DNA from: an uncultured Oscillospiraceae bacterium
GTDB taxonomy: Bacteria > Bacillota > Clostridia > Christensenellales > CAG-314
NCBI GenBank assembly: GCA_964607155.1
Contig: CAZSIF010000006.1
Span: 25,048 to 89,047 of the forward strand
Direction: 5' to 3'
Length of the DNA: 64,000 nt
This document shows, piece by piece, positions 4,837 through 25,269 of this stretch (its first letter is position 1; the number at the start of each line of letters is the position of its first letter). The translations under genes were made by a program, and so were the position numbers. A model generated the notes under the pieces. The model was not told the origin of the DNA. It saw only the letters and a list, made by a program, of their open reading frames with translations, and ran no database searches.

Positions 4837-7800
4837 ATGAGAAAAATAACAACTATACTTTTGACCGTTCTATTGGTCGTTTGCATGGCGGCTTGTTTGA
4901 GTGCATGCAAGAAAACGGAAGAAAAGCTGTTATCTTTGGACGAGCAGATAGCGGCAATCAACACCTCTATCAACGAGCTTAAAACGATTGACGAGCAAAT
5001 AAAGCAGTCCATAGCCGAGTTGGAAGCCAAAGCCAACAGCACGGAGGAGCGAATTGAAGGCATCGACGAGGTTATTGCTGAATTAAAGGCAAAGGATGCC
5101 GAACTTGAGAGTAGAATTGCCGCTCTTGAAAGTGCAGCCAAAGCATTGACGGATAGGGTTAGCAAAAACGAAGAAGATATTACCGATATTAACGGCAGTG
5201 TTGACGAGATTCTTAAACGTTTGGAGACTATCGACGCGTTAAATAAAGCGTTGCAAACACGAATCGACTGTTTGGAAGGCAAACACAGTTGGGATTTTGA
5301 TGACGAAGGTTCGGGGTATTATTGGGCAAATGGACTTGTTTCTTGTCACGCAAATCTCAAGTGCGCCAACTGCAGCCAGTATATACGCATTGAAAGTCAG
5401 GAAATTACCTACGATAACTATGTTTTAACGGCAACCTTCCCCGAAAGCACCCATGTGCCGGCAAAAACGTTTGATATTACCGATGTAAGGGGTTTTGATA
5501 ATGATACCGTGCGCGCCGTAGTTAAATTGATGCTTAGCAGTGGCACGGCGGAAAGTGCAGAAGTAAGGCTGACGCTTTCAGCAGTTCCGCTTTATGAAAA
5601 TGTTTTCCAAGTAATTAGTGAAACGATTCGCGATTATGACGGCTTTGGCTATAATGGTCCTCAAAACGGCGCGGTTAAGCTTACGATTGCCGGCGTGGAA
5701 ACTATTAGCGATGAGGCATTTAGGCAAAGCGATTGGCTTGGCGAGTTGGTTATCGGCGAAGGAGTGAAAACAATCGGAACCAATGCGTTTAATTGGTGTA
5801 CTTATTTAAAGAGTGTTTCGATAGCGAATGATCTGGAAACAATCGGGAGATATGCATTTGAATGTTGTACCGGGCTTACAAACGTTAGTTTGGACGAAAA
5901 ATTGCGGGAAATCGGCGAATATGCATTTAATACATGCGAATCGTTGAAAACATTAAATATACCAAATGGCGTAACTTCTATTGGCGATTATGCGTTCAAC
6001 GAGTGTCGCTTGCTTGAAAGCATAACCTTTGGCAGTGGTATTACGGAGTGGAATTGTTGGCTGGATAATTGCAGTGAACTTACAAGTATCACGTTTACCG
6101 CTCCATTGGAGGTTGTTGAACCGCATGCATTGGATTTGTTTGAAACACGCAACATTACGCTAACGCTTGTCGACGGGCAAATGGATTTTGAACAATCTGT
6201 CGATAATTGGGTTGCCAAAGAAGATCAGTTGTTTGAAGTTAACGGTGACAATGTATTTTGCGAACACGAATTTAAGTCGATTGTGCTTTCCGTTTCGATT
6301 GACGCAACCAAAATGAATGCGGATGAGATTCAGTTTGCGATAGAACAAGCTGTTATGACCGGCAAGCTCAATATAAGCATTGCCCTTGCATCAACAGCCT
6401 CCACCGACGAATTTGCCGCAATACGAACCGCCCTTGCCGGAACGAAGGATTTAATAACGCTTTCGATAAGTGGCGCAACGGAAATACCGCAAGACGCGTT
6501 TAGGCAACTAAGTAACCTTAAACGTATCACTATCGGTGACGGAGTGACAAGTATTGGGCGGTATGCTTTTGCAAACTGTGATGCGTTAGTGGACGTACAT
6601 ATAGGCAAAAACGTAAGTACCATTGGCGAATTTGCTTTTGATAATTGTGGCGAATTGCAAAGCGTAAACATTCCGTTGAGTGTAACGAGTATTGGAGCTT
6701 CTGCATTTAACACATTTGTTTTGGCTGACGTGTATTATGCCGGCGAGTTGGAAAATTGGATAAAAATCCTCTTTGAAACTGCGTATTCTAATCCATGCTC
6801 AAGCGGTGCAAAACTGTATTTTAACGGAAAGCTTGTGGAGCGTGTGACCATTTCCGACGTGACAAACGTGCCGGACAGTTTGTTTTACGGCTGCGCGTCG
6901 CTTACGAGCGTTACTATCGAAGAGGGCGTTACAAGCATAGGCGTTGGCGCATTCGGTATTTGCACGTCGCTTGCGCAAATAACCATTCCGTCAAGCGTAA
7001 CGCATATTGGCGACGGTGCATTTGAGTGCACTGCAATTACGGATATTACGTTATCCGATAATGTAACGGAGTTGGGAGCAAACGTATTTAATGGTTGCGA
7101 TAAGTTGGAAAGCGTTGTTATTGGCAGCGGCGTTACGGATTTGGTATGTGTACAGCTTTTCCGTTTCTGTTATAGTTTGCAAAACATCACGTTTAAGGCG
7201 CCGATAACACGCATGTTGGTAAATACATTTATGGATTGCAATACGGAAAACATAACGCTTACATTTGCCAAGGGACAAAAGGAACTTGTGCAAGTCTATG
7301 AGGGGGACTGGGAAGCAGGCGAGCAAATGTTTGGCGGCGGTAACGAGTTTTGCGGATTAACTTTCGACAGAATTAATGTTCCTATCGTGTTGGACGCATC
7401 GGGAATGACCGCTGACGAATTGGAAGATGCATTGGCGCAAGTGGTACAAAACGGCAGTGAGGATATAACGGTGCAGTTTGATTCTACCACTACCGAGCAG
7501 CACTGGGGCGCAATCGTTAATGCCTTGTATTATGTCAACAGTGGCAGCATAAAGCTTACAATAGACGGTGTGTGGACTATTAGTGGCGCATTTTATAATT
7601 GTGAAGCAATAAAAAGCTTGACCATTGAGAACGTTTCGACTATTGCATGGGGAACTGTTAGGGAGTGCCACCACCTTAATAGCATAACGATTGGTAAAGG
7701 CGTTACTAAAATTGATAACCAAGCCTTTTTACGGTGCAGTCAACTTACAACTGTTATTTTTGAGGGCACGATAGAGGAATGGAACGCTATCGAAAAGGGT

Positions 7801-7869
7801 GATAGTTGGTTGGACGGCTGTGCTGGATATGAAGTTGTTTGCAGTGATGGATCTGTTAGCATTTGGTAA
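4837..7869 (+). CDS. Surface lipoprotein with an N-terminal coiled coil and BspA-type leucine-rich repeats
   Basis: Signal peptide with lipobox LSAC, then an approximately 110-aa heptad-rich segment. Repeated IGxxAFxxCxxLxx(V/I)xIPxxV units are arranged as two duplicated modules. AAGGAG RBS 7 nt upstream. Confidence 0.8.
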   Translation: MRKITTILLTVLLVVCMAACLSACKKTEEKLLSLDEQIAAINTSINELKTIDEQIKQSIAELEAKANSTEERIEGIDEVIAELKAKDAELESRIAALESAAKALTDRVSKNEEDITDINGSVDEILKRLETIDALNKALQTRIDCLEGKHSWDFDDEGSGYYWANGLVSCHANLKCANCSQYIRIESQEITYDNYVLTATFPESTHVPAKTFDITDVRGFDNDTVRAVVKLMLSSGTAESAEVRLTLSAVPLYENVFQVISETIRDYDGFGYNGPQNGAVKLTIAGVETISDEAFRQSDWLGELVIGEGVKTIGTNAFNWCTYLKSVSIANDLETIGRYAFECCTGLTNVSLDEKLREIGEYAFNTCESLKTLNIPNGVTSIGDYAFNECRLLESITFGSGITEWNCWLDNCSELTSITFTAPLEVVEPHALDLFETRNITLTLVDGQMDFEQSVDNWVAKEDQLFEVNGDNVFCEHEFKSIVLSVSIDATKMNADEIQFAIEQAVMTGKLNISIALASTASTDEFAAIRTALAGTKDLITLSISGATEIPQDAFRQLSNLKRITIGDGVTSIGRYAFANCDALVDVHIGKNVSTIGEFAFDNCGELQSVNIPLSVTSIGASAFNTFVLADVYYAGELENWIKILFETAYSNPCSSGAKLYFNGKLVERVTISDVTNVPDSLFYGCASLTSVTIEEGVTSIGVGAFGICTSLAQITIPSSVTHIGDGAFECTAITDITLSDNVTELGANVFNGCDKLESVVIGSGVTDLVCVQLFRFCYSLQNITFKAPITRMLVNTFMDCNTENITLTFAKGQKELVQVYEGDWEAGEQMFGGGNEFCGLTFDRINVPIVLDASGMTADELEDALAQVVQNGSEDITVQFDSTTTEQHWGAIVNALYYVNSGSIKLTIDGVWTISGAFYNCEAIKSLTIENVSTIAWGTVRECHHLNSITIGKGVTKIDNQAFLRCSQLTTVIFEGTIEEWNAIEKGDSWLDGCAGYEVVCSDGSVSIW

Positions 7870-17357: not shown

Positions 17358-17386
17358 TTGACTTTTTGTCAGGGGGGGGGTATAAT
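17358..17386 (+). promoter_or_regulatory. Consensus sigma-A promoter with a G9 homopolymer filling the 3' end of the spacer
   Basis: TTGACT (17358-17363), a 17-nt spacer TTTTGTCAGGGGGGGGG (G9 at 17372-17380), then TATAAT (17381-17386). It lies 38 nt upstream of the ATG of the TIR-LRR gene, whose RBS is AGAGAGG. Confidence 0.6.
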
Positions 17387-17424
17387 ATCGTTAATATAAT
17401 ACAATACAAAAGAGAGGTCTGCGA

Positions 17425-20400
17425 ATGGAACGATACGTCTGCAAAGTGTGCGGCGAACAGCTCGAACAAAAGATAGGCGACTTTTACGTCTGCAAATACT
17501 GTGGCTCACGTTGGAAGGTGGAAAAGGAAGTAACTCGTCTGCCCGTGTTGGATAACGCTTGGCAAGCCTTGCGCAACGGAGATTTCGACGTTGCGGAAGA
17601 GCTGTTTGAGGATGTCATCAACACGGATAACGCCAATCACGAAGCCTACTGGGGCAGGGCATTAGCCGCTGCAAGCATAATTTATGTAAACGACCTCAAC
17701 GAAAATAAAAAAGTACCCACTTGTAATAATATTTCGGAACAGGTGTTTGCCGATGGCACGTTTGTCAAAAAGGCAATCGAGCTTGCCCCTGCCGAGATAG
17801 CAGATAGCTACAAGCAACAAGCCGAGTACATAGATAAGGTTCGTATCGAGTGGTTAAACAAAGCCAGTAAAGAGCCTGCTTACGACGTGTTTATTAGCTA
17901 CAAGGATAGCGACAAGGAACACGGCATCGAACGCACTCAGGATAGTTATGACGCACAAGAACTGTACACCGAGCTTGTTCGCCGTGGATATAACGTGTTT
18001 TATAGCCGCGTTAGCTTGCGAGATAAGCTTTCCGAGCAGTACGAGCCGTACATATATAACGCCATCAAAACCGCAAAGGTAATGATAGTGCTTGCGGAAA
18101 AGCCTGAGTATATAACCGCAACGTGGGTAAAAAACGAGTGGTCACGCTTTCGTAATAGAATAGAGTGCGGTGAAAAGGACTCACGCAGCCTTGTGTTTGT
18201 TTACAAAAACCTTGACTTGTCGGATATACCTGCCGCTTTGCGTTCACGCCAGTGCTTGAACATGGCGGAAATGACATTTTTGCCTTCGCTAATATCTCAC
18301 ATCGAAAAGGTCATCGAAAGCACACGCAAAAACCAAGGTGTGGAAAAGATTGCAATAACAGGCGGCAAGATTGCCAAAAAGTCTACGGAGATATCTCAAA
18401 ACCAAATAACGGTTAGAGAGATAGGCAGCACGGTTGCACAAACGTCCCTTAACGATGCGCAAACGCTAAGCCTTGTTATGTCATATTTGGAAACAAATGA
18501 CTTTACTCATGCACAAAAATGTTTGGACGGCTTGTTGTTATCGGATTCGGAAAACGGTGAGTTTTTGCTTGCAAAACTGTTGCTTGAAAAACGCTGTTCT
18601 ACTATAAAAGCATTAATGACGGAGCTGTCAAATTTTGATAAAAGCGACTTTTCATTCATTGAAAGTATTATTAGTCGCTTGCCCAAAAAGGAAGCGAAAA
18701 AATTGCTTGCCGCAATGTATGAGCGCGCAAATGAAGTAAACGATATACTTGCGGCTCGCATATATGAAGTGATTTTGCCTTTTGCGTGCACAAATCGCGA
18801 TAAATTTATTCTTAACGCGGTGGACAATTGTATCGAAAATGGCAAGTTAAAAAGCTTCAAGCAGTTGCTTTTAACGCTGGATAAAAACGATACGGATAAG
18901 TATATTGAGTTGAATTTGCGCTTTGTTGAGCATAACAAGCCAAAGGACGATGAATATGCTGCCTGTATTGAGTGTTTACAAGCAGCTTTGGATGTGGACG
19001 AGGGTAATATTGTTGCTCTTGATGCGCTTTTGGAATTTGGCATTTGCAAAAATGATAAGTCGTCGGAGGAATTGTACGCTTTATTTGAAAGATTGTTGTC
19101 CTATTCCTCAGATGTTAACAAGGTAGTTGCAGAGTGGCTGCCTAAATTGCAAGCTTTGTATAATGACAATAATTGTGCGACTTGTATACTATGCTTTAGG
19201 CAAATGCTTAAATACTACCAAGCGGATCTATCAAATTTAGACGAAGCGATTTTGAATTTCGCAGATTTGTTATTGTCGGAATACAATTTCGCGGACGCCA
19301 ATGTTTTATATGACATCGTATTGGCTCATTCCACGCAATCACCGAGGGCATATTTGGGCATTGCGTTATCTAAAATTGGCGCGCCCGACATAAACAAATT
19401 GGGAATTAATTGTAGCAAGATAACCGACCTGCCGGAGTTCAGTAAGTACTTGTCGCTTTTGGATACTAAACAACGCAAGCAAATTTTGGCAAATATCCAA
19501 CGTCAACAAACAGATTTATCTCAACGAACCATTGCTGACGAGCAGTGTGCGTCGGAAAGGTATTCCGACTATGTGCATGCACGCAAAAATAGTTTTTTTG
19601 CTGCAAGAAAAGGTATAATAATTCGCAGCATAATATTTTCTGTAATTTGGCTTGTATTTTGCGGTGCAATAAACCTTTTAAGTAACCGCGAACTTTGGAC
19701 TTGGTGGCTGATACTTATTGCAGTCATCGTTGGCTTATTGTTTGCTTTTATTATTTCATATCGCACAGCACGTCGAATTGTACTATTTCCGTGGTTGTTA
19801 GGAGATGTTGCTATCGTATATGCTTTTAGGGGTATTTCGCCATCTGATTTGAGAGCCATAGTGTATGGTGCGTTGGGAGTGTATTTCTTTTTTACATTCA
19901 TTGGTATCTGTATGCCTACTGATGCTGATAGGATATTTGGAACTCGAAAAAGAATCCATTTGACGGAAGAAATAGCAAATAGATATATTGACCAAGATGG
20001 CCTTATGGAAGTTAAGTGGAGTGCTATCTCGAAACTTGACATTGATGGCAACGTAAAAGAAATCTGTAATGATTTATTTGAAAACTGCTGTGATTTACGC
20101 AAGGTATATTTTTGTGGAACTGCCGATAATTGGAACAAGATAAAGTTCAAATCCGGCAAGTCAAATCCGTTGCGTTGGGGCGCAGCTTTGTACGTTAAAG
20201 GTAAACGAGTTACTAACCTCAAACTGTCAGATGTGTCAGATTATGCATTTTACGGTTGTGGCTCGCTTACCGATGTTTGTTTGACTGAAGCTGTTAAGCA
20301 TATTGGTAAGGAAAGCTTTTACGGTTGTCGCTCGCTTGAAAATATTTCTATTGATTGCTCGTCGTTAACTATCGGAGAAGATGCGTTTGCATATTGCGAA

Positions 20401-20640
20401 AAGCTTGCGCAAGTATCGTTTGGCGCAAATGTAAAGCGTATTGGTTCAAGAATGTTTTATGGGTGTAGCTCGCTTTTGACCATTCGATACGATGGCAAGC
20501 AAAAGGATTGGGTTAAGCTACCCAAAAAGGCAGACTGGAATATTGGCACGGGCGGCTACAAGGTATACTGTACGGACGGAGTGTTGGACAAAAGTGGCAA
20601 TTGCATCGAGCAGTACGAAAGTGGTTACTTTCTGAAATAA
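17425..20640 (+). CDS. Multidomain membrane protein: zinc ribbon, TPR-like helices, TIR domain, helical repeats, 3-4 TM helices, BspA-type LRR
   Basis: Domains by residue: CxxC..CxxC at aa 6-26; a TIR-like block at aa ~152-290 (YDVFISYKDSD...VMIVLAEKPEYITATWVKNEWSRF); hydrophobic helices at aa ~731-830; LRR units (IGxxxFYGCxSL) at aa ~860-1050, ending in GYKVYCTDG as in the lipoprotein at 4837. Confidence 0.75.
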   Translation: MERYVCKVCGEQLEQKIGDFYVCKYCGSRWKVEKEVTRLPVLDNAWQALRNGDFDVAEELFEDVINTDNANHEAYWGRALAAASIIYVNDLNENKKVPTCNNISEQVFADGTFVKKAIELAPAEIADSYKQQAEYIDKVRIEWLNKASKEPAYDVFISYKDSDKEHGIERTQDSYDAQELYTELVRRGYNVFYSRVSLRDKLSEQYEPYIYNAIKTAKVMIVLAEKPEYITATWVKNEWSRFRNRIECGEKDSRSLVFVYKNLDLSDIPAALRSRQCLNMAEMTFLPSLISHIEKVIESTRKNQGVEKIAITGGKIAKKSTEISQNQITVREIGSTVAQTSLNDAQTLSLVMSYLETNDFTHAQKCLDGLLLSDSENGEFLLAKLLLEKRCSTIKALMTELSNFDKSDFSFIESIISRLPKKEAKKLLAAMYERANEVNDILAARIYEVILPFACTNRDKFILNAVDNCIENGKLKSFKQLLLTLDKNDTDKYIELNLRFVEHNKPKDDEYAACIECLQAALDVDEGNIVALDALLEFGICKNDKSSEELYALFERLLSYSSDVNKVVAEWLPKLQALYNDNNCATCILCFRQMLKYYQADLSNLDEAILNFADLLLSEYNFADANVLYDIVLAHSTQSPRAYLGIALSKIGAPDINKLGINCSKITDLPEFSKYLSLLDTKQRKQILANIQRQQTDLSQRTIADEQCASERYSDYVHARKNSFFAARKGIIIRSIIFSVIWLVFCGAINLLSNRELWTWWLILIAVIVGLLFAFIISYRTARRIVLFPWLLGDVAIVYAFRGISPSDLRAIVYGALGVYFFFTFIGICMPTDADRIFGTRKRIHLTEEIANRYIDQDGLMEVKWSAISKLDIDGNVKEICNDLFENCCDLRKVYFCGTADNWNKIKFKSGKSNPLRWGAALYVKGKRVTNLKLSDVSDYAFYGCGSLTDVCLTEAVKHIGKESFYGCRSLENISIDCSSLTIGEDAFAYCEKLAQVSFGANVKRIGSRMFYGCSSLLTIRYDGKQKDWVKLPKKADWNIGTGGYKVYCTDGVLDKSGNCIEQYESGYFLK

Positions 20641-20826: not shown

Positions 20827-20855
20827 TTGACAAAGTTGCGTGTAGGCTGTATAAT
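20827..20855 (+). promoter_or_regulatory. Consensus sigma-A promoter for the divIC-like gene
   Basis: TTGACA-17 nt-TATAAT, 28 nt upstream of the ATG at 20884. Confidence 0.55.
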
Positions 20856-20883: not shown

Positions 20884-21174
20884 ATGGAGCAGCTGTTTTA
20901 CAGAAAGTCAACCGCTATACTTACCGTTGCGGCAATTTTGGTATTGATACTTTTGCTGTGCGCGTTGTTAACGTTTTTAACGCAGTATACCTCGATGGCG
21001 GCAAACGCCAAGCAGTTGGAGGAGCTTGCCAATCAGGTTGAAAGCGGCAATAAGGATAAGCAGGAGCTTATCGATTACATGAACAGCAACGAATATGTTC
21101 GTCAATGGGCAGAAGCAAACAATCTTATTCCGGCTGATACTATCAAGTATATTCAAACCGTTACGGGTAAATAA
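20884..21174 (+). CDS. divIC: Septum formation initiator family protein (FtsB/DivIC-like)
   Basis: A 96-aa protein with a single N-terminal TM helix, a short coiled coil, and a YVRQWAEANNLIPADTIKY tail (cf. the YIE..AR..LG motif of DivIC/FtsB). Confidence 0.6.
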   Translation: MEQLFYRKSTAILTVAAILVLILLLCALLTFLTQYTSMAANAKQLEELANQVESGNKDKQELIDYMNSNEYVRQWAEANNLIPADTIKYIQTVTGK

Positions 21175-23812: not shown

Positions 23813-24805
23813 ATGCAAACTAAATTATTGGGCTTTTCTCACGAGGAGCTTGTTGAGGCGGGACGGCTTATTCGCGACGGACAGCTGGTTGCCTTTCCTA
23901 CTGAAACGGTGTACGGTTTGGGTGCAAACGCGCTTGACGAACAAGCCGTTAAAAGCACTTATGTTGCCAAGGGACGTCCGAGCGACAATCCGCTTATCGT
24001 ACACGTTTGGAATAAGCAACAAATATTTGATATCGCAAGCTATGTTTCGCCCGATGCGGAAAAAATAATTGACGATGTTATGCCGGAAAGCATAACCATT
24101 GTGTTGCCCAAAAAGCCGATAATATCCGATGTGATAACCGCCGGATTGCCTACTGTCGCAATTCGCATGCCAAGGTCGGCGGAGGCACGCAAGTTTTTGC
24201 AATATGCCGATGTGCCTGTAACTGCACCGAGCGCAAACACAAGCTCGCGACCGAGCCCCACAAACTGGCAGCGTGTTCGCGACGATATGGACGGCAAAAT
24301 TGCGGCGATATTGTGCGGCGAGGATTGCGACGTGGGTATAGAATCCACCGTGCTTGATTTGACGGGCGACGCCCCTCGCATTTTGCGTCCCGGTATCGTT
24401 ACCCCTGAGCGGTTGCGGCGGGTACTTGGCAAGTCCGTAGAGGTTATCACGGATCCTAAAAGTAAGGTTAATTCTCCCGGAGTCAAATACAAACATTATG
24501 CGCCCAAGGTGCCCATGGCGTTGGAGCTATTGGGCGATACAGCCAAGCTTGTCGATTACTACGACGCCCTTGCGGCTCGCGGCATAAAGCCTGTTTTGCT
24601 GGTGGAACATCCGGAGCTGTTTGGCAATCGCAATGCCGTGTGTATCGGGAATACCGACTTGGCTGTGGCACAAGGGTTATTTGAAAATTTGCGCCTGCTG
24701 GAAAACGAGTATGACTACATAATTGCAAGCTTTTCGTCCAAAACGGAGCTTGCTCAAAGCATTATCAACAGACTTGTTCGCTCGGCGGCACACAACGTAA
24801 TCTGA
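23813..24805 (+). CDS. tsaC: L-threonylcarbamoyladenylate synthase (Sua5/YwlC long form)
   Basis: FPTETVYGLGANAL, KGRPSDNPLIVH and SANTSSRPSPT motifs, plus a C-terminal Sua5 domain. Confidence 0.9.
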   Translation: MQTKLLGFSHEELVEAGRLIRDGQLVAFPTETVYGLGANALDEQAVKSTYVAKGRPSDNPLIVHVWNKQQIFDIASYVSPDAEKIIDDVMPESITIVLPKKPIISDVITAGLPTVAIRMPRSAEARKFLQYADVPVTAPSANTSSRPSPTNWQRVRDDMDGKIAAILCGEDCDVGIESTVLDLTGDAPRILRPGIVTPERLRRVLGKSVEVITDPKSKVNSPGVKYKHYAPKVPMALELLGDTAKLVDYYDALAARGIKPVLLVEHPELFGNRNAVCIGNTDLAVAQGLFENLRLLENEYDYIIASFSSKTELAQSIINRLVRSAAHNVI

Positions 24806-24840
24806 ATTTACATCGCGTTTATTTTTGTGAGGTATCATTT

Positions 24841-25269
24841 ATGAAAATTGCAATGGGCTGCGATCACGGCGGCTTGGAACTCAAAAACAGTATCAAGGAC
24901 TATCTCGTGGCGCATGGGCACGAGGTTGTGGATTTTGGCACTTTTAGCAAGGATAGCTGCGATTATCCTGATTTTGCCAAGCCTGCGGCGGAGGCTGTGG
25001 GCAGCGGCGAGTGCGACCGCGGTATAGTGTGTTGCACTACAGGTATCGGCGTTAGCATTGTTGCAAACAAGGTAAAAAACGTTAGGTGCGCACTGTGTCA
25101 AAGCTGCGATATGGCGGAGTTAACTCGTAGGCACAACAATGCAAATATGCTTGCATTCGGGCAAAAATATACGTCGGCTGCGGACGCAATAAAAATGACG
25201 GATGTCTTTTTGGCTACTCCGTTTGAGGGCGGCAGACATCTGGCGAGAGTGGAAAAGATAGAAAAATAA
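24841..25269 (+). CDS. rpiB: Ribose-5-phosphate isomerase B
   Basis: MKIAMGCDHGG.ELK..I...L...GHEV.DFG and GIV.C.TGIG.SI.ANK are the canonical RpiB/LacAB pattern. Confidence 0.9.
   Translation: MKIAMGCDHGGLELKNSIKDYLVAHGHEVVDFGTFSKDSCDYPDFAKPAAEAVGSGECDRGIVCCTTGIGVSIVANKVKNVRCALCQSCDMAELTRRHNNANMLAFGQKYTSAADAIKMTDVFLATPFEGGRHLARVEKIEK

Follow-up and report, generated by a model that had tools for sequence, protein, structure and literature searches.

A bacterial TIR protein with a membrane anchor and a C-terminal leucine-rich repeat module belongs to a large family with a constant head and swappable tails

Does a bacterium encode a protein laid out like a Toll-like receptor (TLR), and on which side of the membrane would each of its parts lie? 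The question is raised by one open reading frame (ORF) on the forward strand of a 64,000-nucleotide stretch of contig CAZSIF010000006.1 (assembly GCA_964607155.1, uncultured Oscillospiraceae bacterium). We refer to this whole stretch as the window, to positions within it by its own numbering, and to the protein encoded at 17425..20640 as the query. The original prediction, made from the sequence alone, divided this 1,071-residue ORF into six successive elements, running from a zinc ribbon through a TIR-like block and hydrophobic helices to a leucine-rich repeat (LRR) module, and proposed that the LRR senses outside the cell while the TIR domain acts inside. In bacteria, the TIR domain is best known from antiphage systems, as a soluble component that cleaves NAD. 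We found all six elements where they had been placed: the locus encodes a real zinc-ribbon/TIR/tetratricopeptide repeat (TPR)/membrane-anchor/LRR protein. It is a member of a large, uncharacterised family in which a constant, enzyme-like head is joined to swappable tails. The original prediction was thus right about the parts and about the plan of the family, wrong about its rarity, and probably wrong about the location of the LRR in this particular protein.

The features of the protein are as follows, with confidence in AlphaFold models expressed as the predicted local distance difference test score (pLDDT):

17425..20640, +, coding sequence of the whole protein, 1071 aa (from the ORF list; 100% identical to database protein P0001)
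17434..17517, +, zinc ribbon, aa 4-31 (C6, C9, C23, C26), with invariant cysteines and strands modelled at aa 15-31
17536..17868, +, conserved helical domain with a beta-hairpin, aa 38-148, within the constant head (AlphaFold pLDDT ~80-95; many invariant residues)
17878..18336, +, TIR domain, aa 152-304 (Pfam TIR_2, Foldseek and the family profile)
18136..18138, +, codon of Glu238, at the catalytic-Glu position of TIR NADases, in the motif W234-V-K-N-E238-W (conservation and alignment)
18337..18447, +, linker closing the constant head, aa 305-341, with the motif I-x-I-x-G-G-x-I-A-K-K (97% identical to the relative P0002 until about aa 341, then an abrupt fall; low pLDDT)
18448..19464, +, TPR-type alpha-solenoid, aa 342-680, the start of the variable tail (about 20 helices at pLDDT >90; Foldseek)
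19465..19614, +, juxtamembrane helix with a basic end, aa 681-730, continuous with the first transmembrane (TM) helix (AlphaFold helix 681-752; stretch rich in Lys and Arg before TM1)
19615..19920, +, membrane anchor, aa 731-832: TM1 731-752, TM2 759-781, a marginal TM3 785-801 and TM4 810-832 (Kyte-Doolittle peaks, insertion energies and AlphaFold)
19921..19986, +, basic amphipathic helix after the anchor, aa 833-854 (AlphaFold helix; 4 Lys/Arg in 15 aa)
20002..20613, +, BspA-type LRR module, aa 860-1063 (Pfam LRR_5; modelled as a beta-solenoid)

Is the block after the ribbon a TIR domain, and does it look like an enzyme? Pfam TIR_2 (PF13676) matches aa 155-281 at 34.5 bits against a curated cutoff of 28. 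In a Foldseek search of the PDB, TIR domains were returned at probability 1.0, with SPARTA TIR-APAZ, TIR-STING and Caenorhabditis elegans TIR-1 at the top and TRIF and MyD88 also present; the TM-score, normalised to the isolated MyD88 TIR, is 0.71-0.75. The AlphaFold TIR domain has the canonical flavodoxin-like order of elements, from betaA (155-158) to alphaE (285-304), and the model of aa 1-330 as a whole reaches a pLDDT of 83. A profile of the family TIR segment matches the TIR domains of TLR15/TLR2, Roq1, RUN1, RPV1 and L6, and weakly that of TcpB. The TIR-like block first read at 17878-18294 is therefore confirmed by both profile and fold. Confirmed too is the Glu that had been placed at the WCxxEL position: the family motif W-v-k-N-E-W aligns onto W-C-L-D/E-E-L, and Glu238, the residue that opens helix alphaC, is matched with the Glu of WCLDEL in RUN1 and of WCLEEL in Roq1. 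It does not vary among the 120 closest homologues, and the W-x-K-N-E-W motif is also kept across distant loci. The Glu of the WCLDEL-type motif is the catalytic residue of plant TIR NADases. By fold and by the position of its Glu, the domain thus resembles the catalytic, NAD+-cleaving type, and NADase activity is predicted for it.

Experimental data were found for a single family member. Weagley et al. (2022; PMC9092222) tested 152 TIR domains of gut bacteria in excised form, among them that of EUBELI_RS07950 from Eubacterium eligens ATCC 27750, which gave no NADase product in vitro; its metagenomic relatives were labelled inactive for this reason, and the authors caution that fixed-length isolated domains can give false negatives. 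The head of EUBELI_RS07950 is colinear with aa 6-304 of the query (30% identity, E = 2e-39), and the two share the zinc ribbon, the hairpin and a VWVKNEW motif. Yet EUBELI_RS07950 is a divergent member that lacks the otherwise invariant R-T-x-D-S loop, and it was assayed as an excised TIR alone. A second candidate from the same study, TcpF of Enterococcus faecalis, was rejected as a family member, as its own sequence (MSNGKKIFISHSS...; supplementary file 2 of PMC9092222) is without the family motif.

The TIR domain is embedded in a head that is nearly frozen among the 120 closest homologues, with dozens of invariant positions, including W234, N237, E238, W239 and R241. The CxxC...CxxC zinc ribbon predicted at aa 6-26 is well supported: C6, C9, C23 and C26 are invariant in 119-120 of the 120 homologues, and AlphaFold models a three-stranded ribbon; Pfam zinc-ribbon matches to the N terminus are weak. 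The following stretch, aa ~40-150, had been read as TPR-like. It is indeed helical, with three helices at 38-82 and two at 112-148, but it is not pure TPR, since a conserved beta-hairpin (85-100) is set between them and the Pfam TPR_16 match, at 26.8 bits, lies under the cutoff of 32.7.

How widespread is this architecture? We defined the zinc-ribbon/TIR-head family by a colinear head of ~340 aa that opens the protein at residue 1 and includes four Cys, the beta-hairpin motif, E-P-Y-I-[YF] and W-x-K-N-E-W; the query carries every one of these motifs. An exhaustive phmmer search with aa 1-330 of the query against 1.84 billion representative proteins gave 6,475 matches, 3,419 of them at E <= 1e-30 (~3,400 clusters at 50% identity). 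The head almost always starts at the first residues of its carrier, and the carriers range from 277 to 3,301 aa. A word-indexed search collected 1,687 relatives that are ~44% identical over the first ~65% of the protein and differ in their C termini. At least 590 loci are found in species-representative genomes, nearly all of gut or rumen Firmicutes, where the best match is 62% identical to the query, so that the species of the window is not represented there; carriers include Christensenellaceae, Oscillospiraceae, Lachnospiraceae, Acutalibacteraceae, Erysipelotrichia and isolates such as Anaerotignum sp. MSJ-24. With this many head clusters, and with LRR_5 also present in many of the 120 closest homologues, the suggestion that the architecture is unusual does not hold. 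We found no functional description of it in the open-access literature.

The head and the tail of these proteins differ sharply in their conservation. The query and P0002, its closest full-length relative, are 96-98% identical over aa 1-341 and 20-35% identical from aa 342 to the end. This sharp mosaic border near codon 341 (17425-18447 versus 18448-20640) suggests exchange of the head cassette or gene conversion. Arrays of tandem paralogues are common, with up to three or four copies (as at loci L054 and L030), and in 20 comparisons between such paralogues the heads were 48-91% identical and the tails 5-69%. Such a mosaic of identities is what a constant effector would show if its recognition parts diversify.

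The layout of the family as a whole can be read from the charges around its TM helices. In a sample of 298 family proteins with the head motif, a single TM helix follows the head in 170, of which 146 continue into a tail of at least 120 aa. Taking as flanks the 15 residues on either side of the helix, these 146 proteins have on average 5.9 Lys/Arg before it and 1.5 after it, with the same direction in 142 of the 146 (Wilcoxon p = 2e-25). By the positive-inside rule, this bias places the N terminus inside and the C terminus outside, and therefore the repeat domains outside. In 45 loci, the tails behind a single TM helix comprise DUF6273 (21), LRR_5 (9), RCC1 (8) and Flg_new (4), as well as TPR and RHS. 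A TLR-like layout, with the TIR domain inside, one TM helix and repeats outside, is thus the dominant plan of the family as predicted from sequence.

Does the query follow this plan? The predicted anchoring in the membrane is confirmed by hydropathy and insertion energies, and the three or four hydrophobic helices proposed for aa ~731-830 resolve into four segments, the third of them marginal. Their summed apparent insertion energies, in kcal/mol, are -1.4 for TM1 (736-752), -5.2 for TM2 (761-777), +3.2 for TM3 (785-801) and -0.3 for TM4 (812-830); no 19-mer from the soluble parts of the protein lies under +10.5. AlphaFold places TM2 at 758-781, a short low-confidence helix of 12 residues at 789-800 and TM4 at 806-829. 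We set the model aside as evidence on topology, because the pLDDT of the TM3 region is below 50. P0002 has four segments of clearly negative insertion energy (739-755, 763-779, 785-801 and 807-823) at the same positions as the four of the query. In addition, the flank after TM4, DADRIFGTRKRIHLT, has 4 Lys/Arg in 15 residues. In the single-pass members, only 1 of the 146 external flanks has at least 4 Lys/Arg, against 15 of the 146 cytoplasmic flanks with exactly 4, which gives a likelihood ratio of about 15 in favour of a cytoplasmic C terminus. Multi-TM members with long tails show flanks of 0-2 Lys/Arg behind an odd number of helices and mostly 2-4 behind an even number; long tails are rare behind such anchors (6 of 57 members in the first sample).

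Because TM3 coincides with a helix of P0002 and the flank after the anchor is basic, the query is probably atypical within its family, with a four-TM anchor and a cytoplasmic LRR. The layout first proposed, TIR inside and LRR outside, thus stands as the plan of the single-pass members and probably fails for the protein on which it was based, where the comparison with P0002 and the flank charge point instead to an even number of helices with the LRR in the cytoplasm, the arrangement that had been named as contrary to the proposal. The query may not be the only such member: in P0012, P0118, P0157 and P0217, which belong to a minority of the family, a tail of 130-260 aa comes after two clear TM helices, and in P0012 and P0118 this tail is LRR_5, so that cytoplasmic LRR_5 tails may be a recurring subarchitecture.

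On either side of this anchor lie two repeat modules, covered by a full-length AlphaFold model with a pLDDT of 80.8. The predicted helical repeats, ~400 aa by the first estimate, occupy about 340 aa (342-680), and their solenoid matches TPR superhelices in Foldseek (consensus TPR, the TPR of OGT and subunits of the APC/C). It is merely 27-40% identical to its relatives. The C-terminal module is BspA-type, as had been proposed: Pfam LRR_5 (PF13306) scores 88.4 bits against a curated cutoff of 27.7, PDB structures of LRR_5 are matched by profile, and the model shows regular LRR strands at aa 870-1063 and a beta-solenoid at pLDDT >85 from about aa 940. A similar module occurs elsewhere in the window, in a 1010-aa lipoprotein (4837-7869, +) with a signal ending in ...LSAC, a coiled-coil stretch and five LRR_5 stretches (337 bits). 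Over 98 aa, the LRR cassette of the query shares 45% identity with the cassette at 6730-7029, in line with an estimate by eye of ~40%, and over 230 aa it is 31.7% identical to 6484-7146. Sequence comparison thus identifies a common module that was exchanged or inherited. This likeness had been taken to argue that the LRR works outside the cell, but it tells of shared ancestry, not of location.

Which genes accompany the family at other loci? In a distant branch, a Band_7_1 SPFH protein (~400 aa, often with zinc ribbons or SHOCT) is encoded at 39 of 74 loci, and 33 of the 74 also encode a conserved protein of 233 aa, with four TM helices ahead of a C-terminal domain that is helical, for which no Pfam or NCBIfam match was found. 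The usual order, on the same strand, is SPFH, four-TM and then one to three TIR genes, as in the clusters L054:1542-13198, L033:8020-12565, L046:7876-12553 and L069:10001-14325. By tblastn, the Band_7_1 SPFH gene and the four-TM gene are both absent from the whole window. We considered whether the TM block of the query is a fused copy of the four-TM neighbour and rejected this, with an hhalign probability of 17.6%. A small sub-branch adjoins an IetA-like AAA ATPase (PADLOC E values down to 1e-43) and a ~260-aa trypsin-like protease that matches the protease part of RT-Protease_XI (L018:6215-8498, L019:15693-17608, L013:3856-4686, L015:3656-4792 and L020:16995-18110); the two may form a defence-type partner module of this sub-branch. 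At single loci, a 233-aa SIR2-family gene in divergent orientation (L081:7108-7809, -) lies upstream of the close TIR homologue P0021 (8001-11396), and a 65-aa ribbon-helix-helix (RHH_1) gene (L083:4090-4287, +) lies 14 nt upstream of P0012, likewise a close family member. The former may be an ordinary CobB-type deacetylase, although SIR2 beside TIR is reminiscent of Thoeris; the latter may encode a small regulator or a partner of the antitoxin type.

Taken as a whole, the locus is best explained, in our tentative view, and with somewhat less than an even chance of being right, as a solitary family member that forms a self-contained sensor-effector, its TIR domain anchored by two helical hairpins (four TM helices). 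The head would be an NAD+-cleaving or signal-generating enzyme restrained by the variable parts. The TPR and LRR parts would keep the TIR head inactive for as long as no ligand is bound, the candidate ligands being phage components and products of envelope damage; upon binding, the membrane-tethered molecules would cluster, the TIR domains would pair, and Glu238 would subsequently cleave NAD+, with NAD+ depletion or a cyclic-ADP-ribose-type signal as the outcome. In this copy, the head and the LRR would both face the cytoplasm, which would make it a membrane-tethered protein and not a transmembrane receptor, most relatives being single-pass with their tails outside. In its favour stand the TIR fold, the invariant Glu238 and the near-invariance of the whole head, the mosaic of head and tail, the TPR solenoid, the helix positions and flank charge that point to four TM helices, the gene's own candidate promoter and Shine-Dalgarno sequence, and its solitary setting here and in close homologues. 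The ATPase and protease neighbours of the sub-branch fit a role in conflict. Several observations weigh against this explanation. The isolated TIR of the divergent member EUBELI_RS07950 was NADase-negative; TM3 is marginal, contains Pro and Asp, and is poorly modelled, which leaves room for a three-TM topology; and an exported lipoprotein encoded in the same genome has a cassette 45% identical to that of the LRR. The very strong conservation seen in the head is unusual for fast-evolving defence genes. No general association with defence islands was seen, as most of the 148 neighbours at 64 loci have metabolic or housekeeping functions; no defence-island context was found in the window; and tblastn gave no match to the head in the phage (INPHARED) or plasmid (PLSDB) collections.

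The external tails of the relatives invite a different account of the query, the one first proposed, as a true transmembrane sensor-effector with three TM helices and the LRR outside, in which an external ligand clusters or reorients the TIR heads and thereby switches on NAD+ cleavage, a logic like that of TLRs and PknB. The dominant family plan, the surface-type character of the family tails (LRR_5, DUF6273, RCC1 and Flg_new), the lipoprotein-like cassette and the marginal TM3, modelled as a short helix, all speak for it, and the charge bias slightly favours three helices when short loops alone are counted. It has to contend, however, with a TM3 that sits exactly at a clear helix of P0002, all four of whose helices have negative energies, with a post-anchor flank whose charge is matched by just one external flank in 146, and with the rarity of long tails behind multi-TM anchors; we consider it quite unlikely. 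Extended to the whole family, the receptor idea would make these proteins bacterial transmembrane pattern-recognition receptors, in which interchangeable external LRR_5, DUF6273, RCC1 or Flg_new domains sense phage particles, neighbouring cells, or host or envelope ligands and signal through one TM helix to a constant TIR enzyme, under the control of an SPFH scaffold in many species. The family would then be a functional counterpart of TLRs and receptor kinases, and the present locus a derived, hairpin-anchored member. We regard this as conceivable but lean against it.

The SPFH genes can also be read in a way that dispenses with catalysis. The head would then be a nonenzymatic scaffold that clusters through homotypic TIR contacts, the family would stand in place of SamG/YdjG in an SPFH-linked system for envelope stress or membrane microdomains, the tails would touch the cell wall or surface, and the copy in the window would be an orphan. 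The same-strand SPFH and four-TM genes at 33-39 of the 74 loci agree with this account, and their composition mirrors pspA-ydjGHI/samGHI of Bacillus subtilis, where two membrane proteins, one of them with a zinc ribbon, bring in a soluble SPFH protein, itself with a zinc finger, that restrains their signalling (PMC8581546, PMC9239133 and bioRxiv 10.64898/2026.02.06.704340). It would also accommodate the negative NADase assay, the housekeeping-like neighbourhoods and the very strong conservation of the head. Yet the W-x-K-N-E-W motif and its Glu, invariant in the 120 homologues and kept in distant loci, are hard to explain without catalysis; the top structural matches are enzymatic TIRs; the head and SamG/YdjG share just an N-terminal CxxC; and the window lacks both partner genes. 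We therefore judge the scaffold account unlikely. An animal target is far less probable. TIR mimicry is documented for TcpB, TcpC and TcpF, and BspA-type LRRs are adhesion modules, so that a host-directed, Tcp-like TIR disturbing TLR/MyD88 signalling, with the LRR as an adhesin, might be imagined in what is probably a gut bacterium, and the TcpB TIR is a weak match to the family TIR profile. But the query has no signal peptide, and its TIR domain lies in a 730-aa region ahead of the anchor, so the domain stays in the bacterial cytoplasm; TcpF is without the family signature, and the family extends across thousands of commensal lineages, with tandem arrays. Such a role is very improbable.

What does the gene itself look like? 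M1 of the protein is conserved in 118 of the 120 homologues, and two elements upstream of it can be read as expression signals:

17358..17386, +, sigma-70-like promoter TTGACT-17 nt-TATAAT (11/12 consensus match, 39 nt upstream of the ATG; a candidate by consensus alone)
17410..17417, +, Shine-Dalgarno sequence AAGAGAGG (7 nt before the ATG; read from the sequence)

Downstream, no intrinsic terminator was detected between the stop codon and a perfect (12/12) sigma-70 consensus promoter, TTGACA-17-TATAAT, at 20827-20855 (+), which lies just 5' of a small FtsB-like ORF (20884-21174). As first proposed, the gene is solitary among housekeeping genes, with no defence partners: besides the FtsB-like ORF, its neighbours in the window encode an F420-ligase-like protein, NagB, FTCD_C, an acyltransferase, Sua5, RpiB and a type III glutamine synthetase, and two close homologues are likewise solitary amid housekeeping genes. 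Among the PADLOC-DB defence models, the best match is the candidate PDC-S66 (17.8 bits, E = 4e-4), and no partner genes were found in the window. A synteny comparison with close relatives showed no recurrence of the flanking genes beside close homologues of the TIR protein. Homologues of Sua5 or RpiB (23813-25269 in the window) also lie ~3-7 kb from family members in three distant loci (L040:2763-3740, L052:2847-3824 and L056:15611-16036), which could be weak residual synteny or coincidence.

Thousands of gut-Firmicutes proteins thus tether a near-invariant TIR head to the membrane and vary their tails, which are hypervariable and mostly surface exposed, often in tandem gene arrays. If the head is truly an enzyme gated by the tails, this would amount to surface- or membrane-coupled TIR signalling in bacteria and would bear on the origin of receptor-type TIR architectures. 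It would also matter for the NAD metabolism of the gut microbiome, in which family members have until now been classed as inactive from one excised domain; in E. eligens ATCC 27750, a cultured carrier makes the enzyme question directly testable.

How, then, does the query compare with known systems? Like animal TLRs, it combines an LRR, a membrane segment and a TIR domain in one polypeptide, and its single-pass relatives carry repeats outside and TIR inside. It differs from them in its reversed domain order, correctly noted from the start (TIR N-terminal, LRR C-terminal), in the lack of a signal peptide, in its three or four hydrophobic segments, which are probably four TM helices with an internal LRR, in the BspA-type LRR_5 repeats, in a TIR that keeps the catalytic Glu, and in the added zinc ribbon ahead of the TIR and TPR solenoid after it. 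The resemblance is one of analogy through domain shuffling, not of orthology. In PknB/PrkC-type receptor kinases, one TM helix links an N-terminal cytoplasmic enzyme to extracellular repeats at the C terminus. Most family members share this topology, but their output is TIR and not a kinase, and their ectodomains are LRR_5, DUF6273, RCC1 or Flg_new instead of PASTA. With PspA-SamGHI (YdjGHI), about half of the sampled family loci share a zinc-ribbon membrane protein, a multi-TM protein and a zinc-finger SPFH protein. The likeness is one of composition; no pspA gene was seen, and the window has neither the SPFH nor the multi-TM partner.

Among TIR proteins, the query is TIR_2-type like Thoeris ThsB and other defence TIRs, and it is weakly similar to the Thoeris III ThcB4 model, although at 19 bits against a cutoff of 220 and with no adjacent ThsA-type partner (SIR2/SLOG or Macro). 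With the enzymatic TIRs (RUN1/Roq1, SARM1/TIR-1, SPARTA TIR-APAZ and TIR-STING), it shares the fold and the position of the W-x-x-x-E motif. The TIR domain is joined to sensor or regulator repeats, namely TPR and LRR in the query, LRR in TNLs and an ARM solenoid in SARM1. Unlike them, it has no NB-ARC or STAND ATPase, SAM, Argonaute or STING partner domain; its enzymatic activity is a prediction, and its TIR sits, membrane anchored, in a constant head of its own with a zinc ribbon. The query is thus a TIR effector fused to repeat-type sensor domains, which is a known kind of protein, and it is the membrane anchor and the unique head that set it apart.

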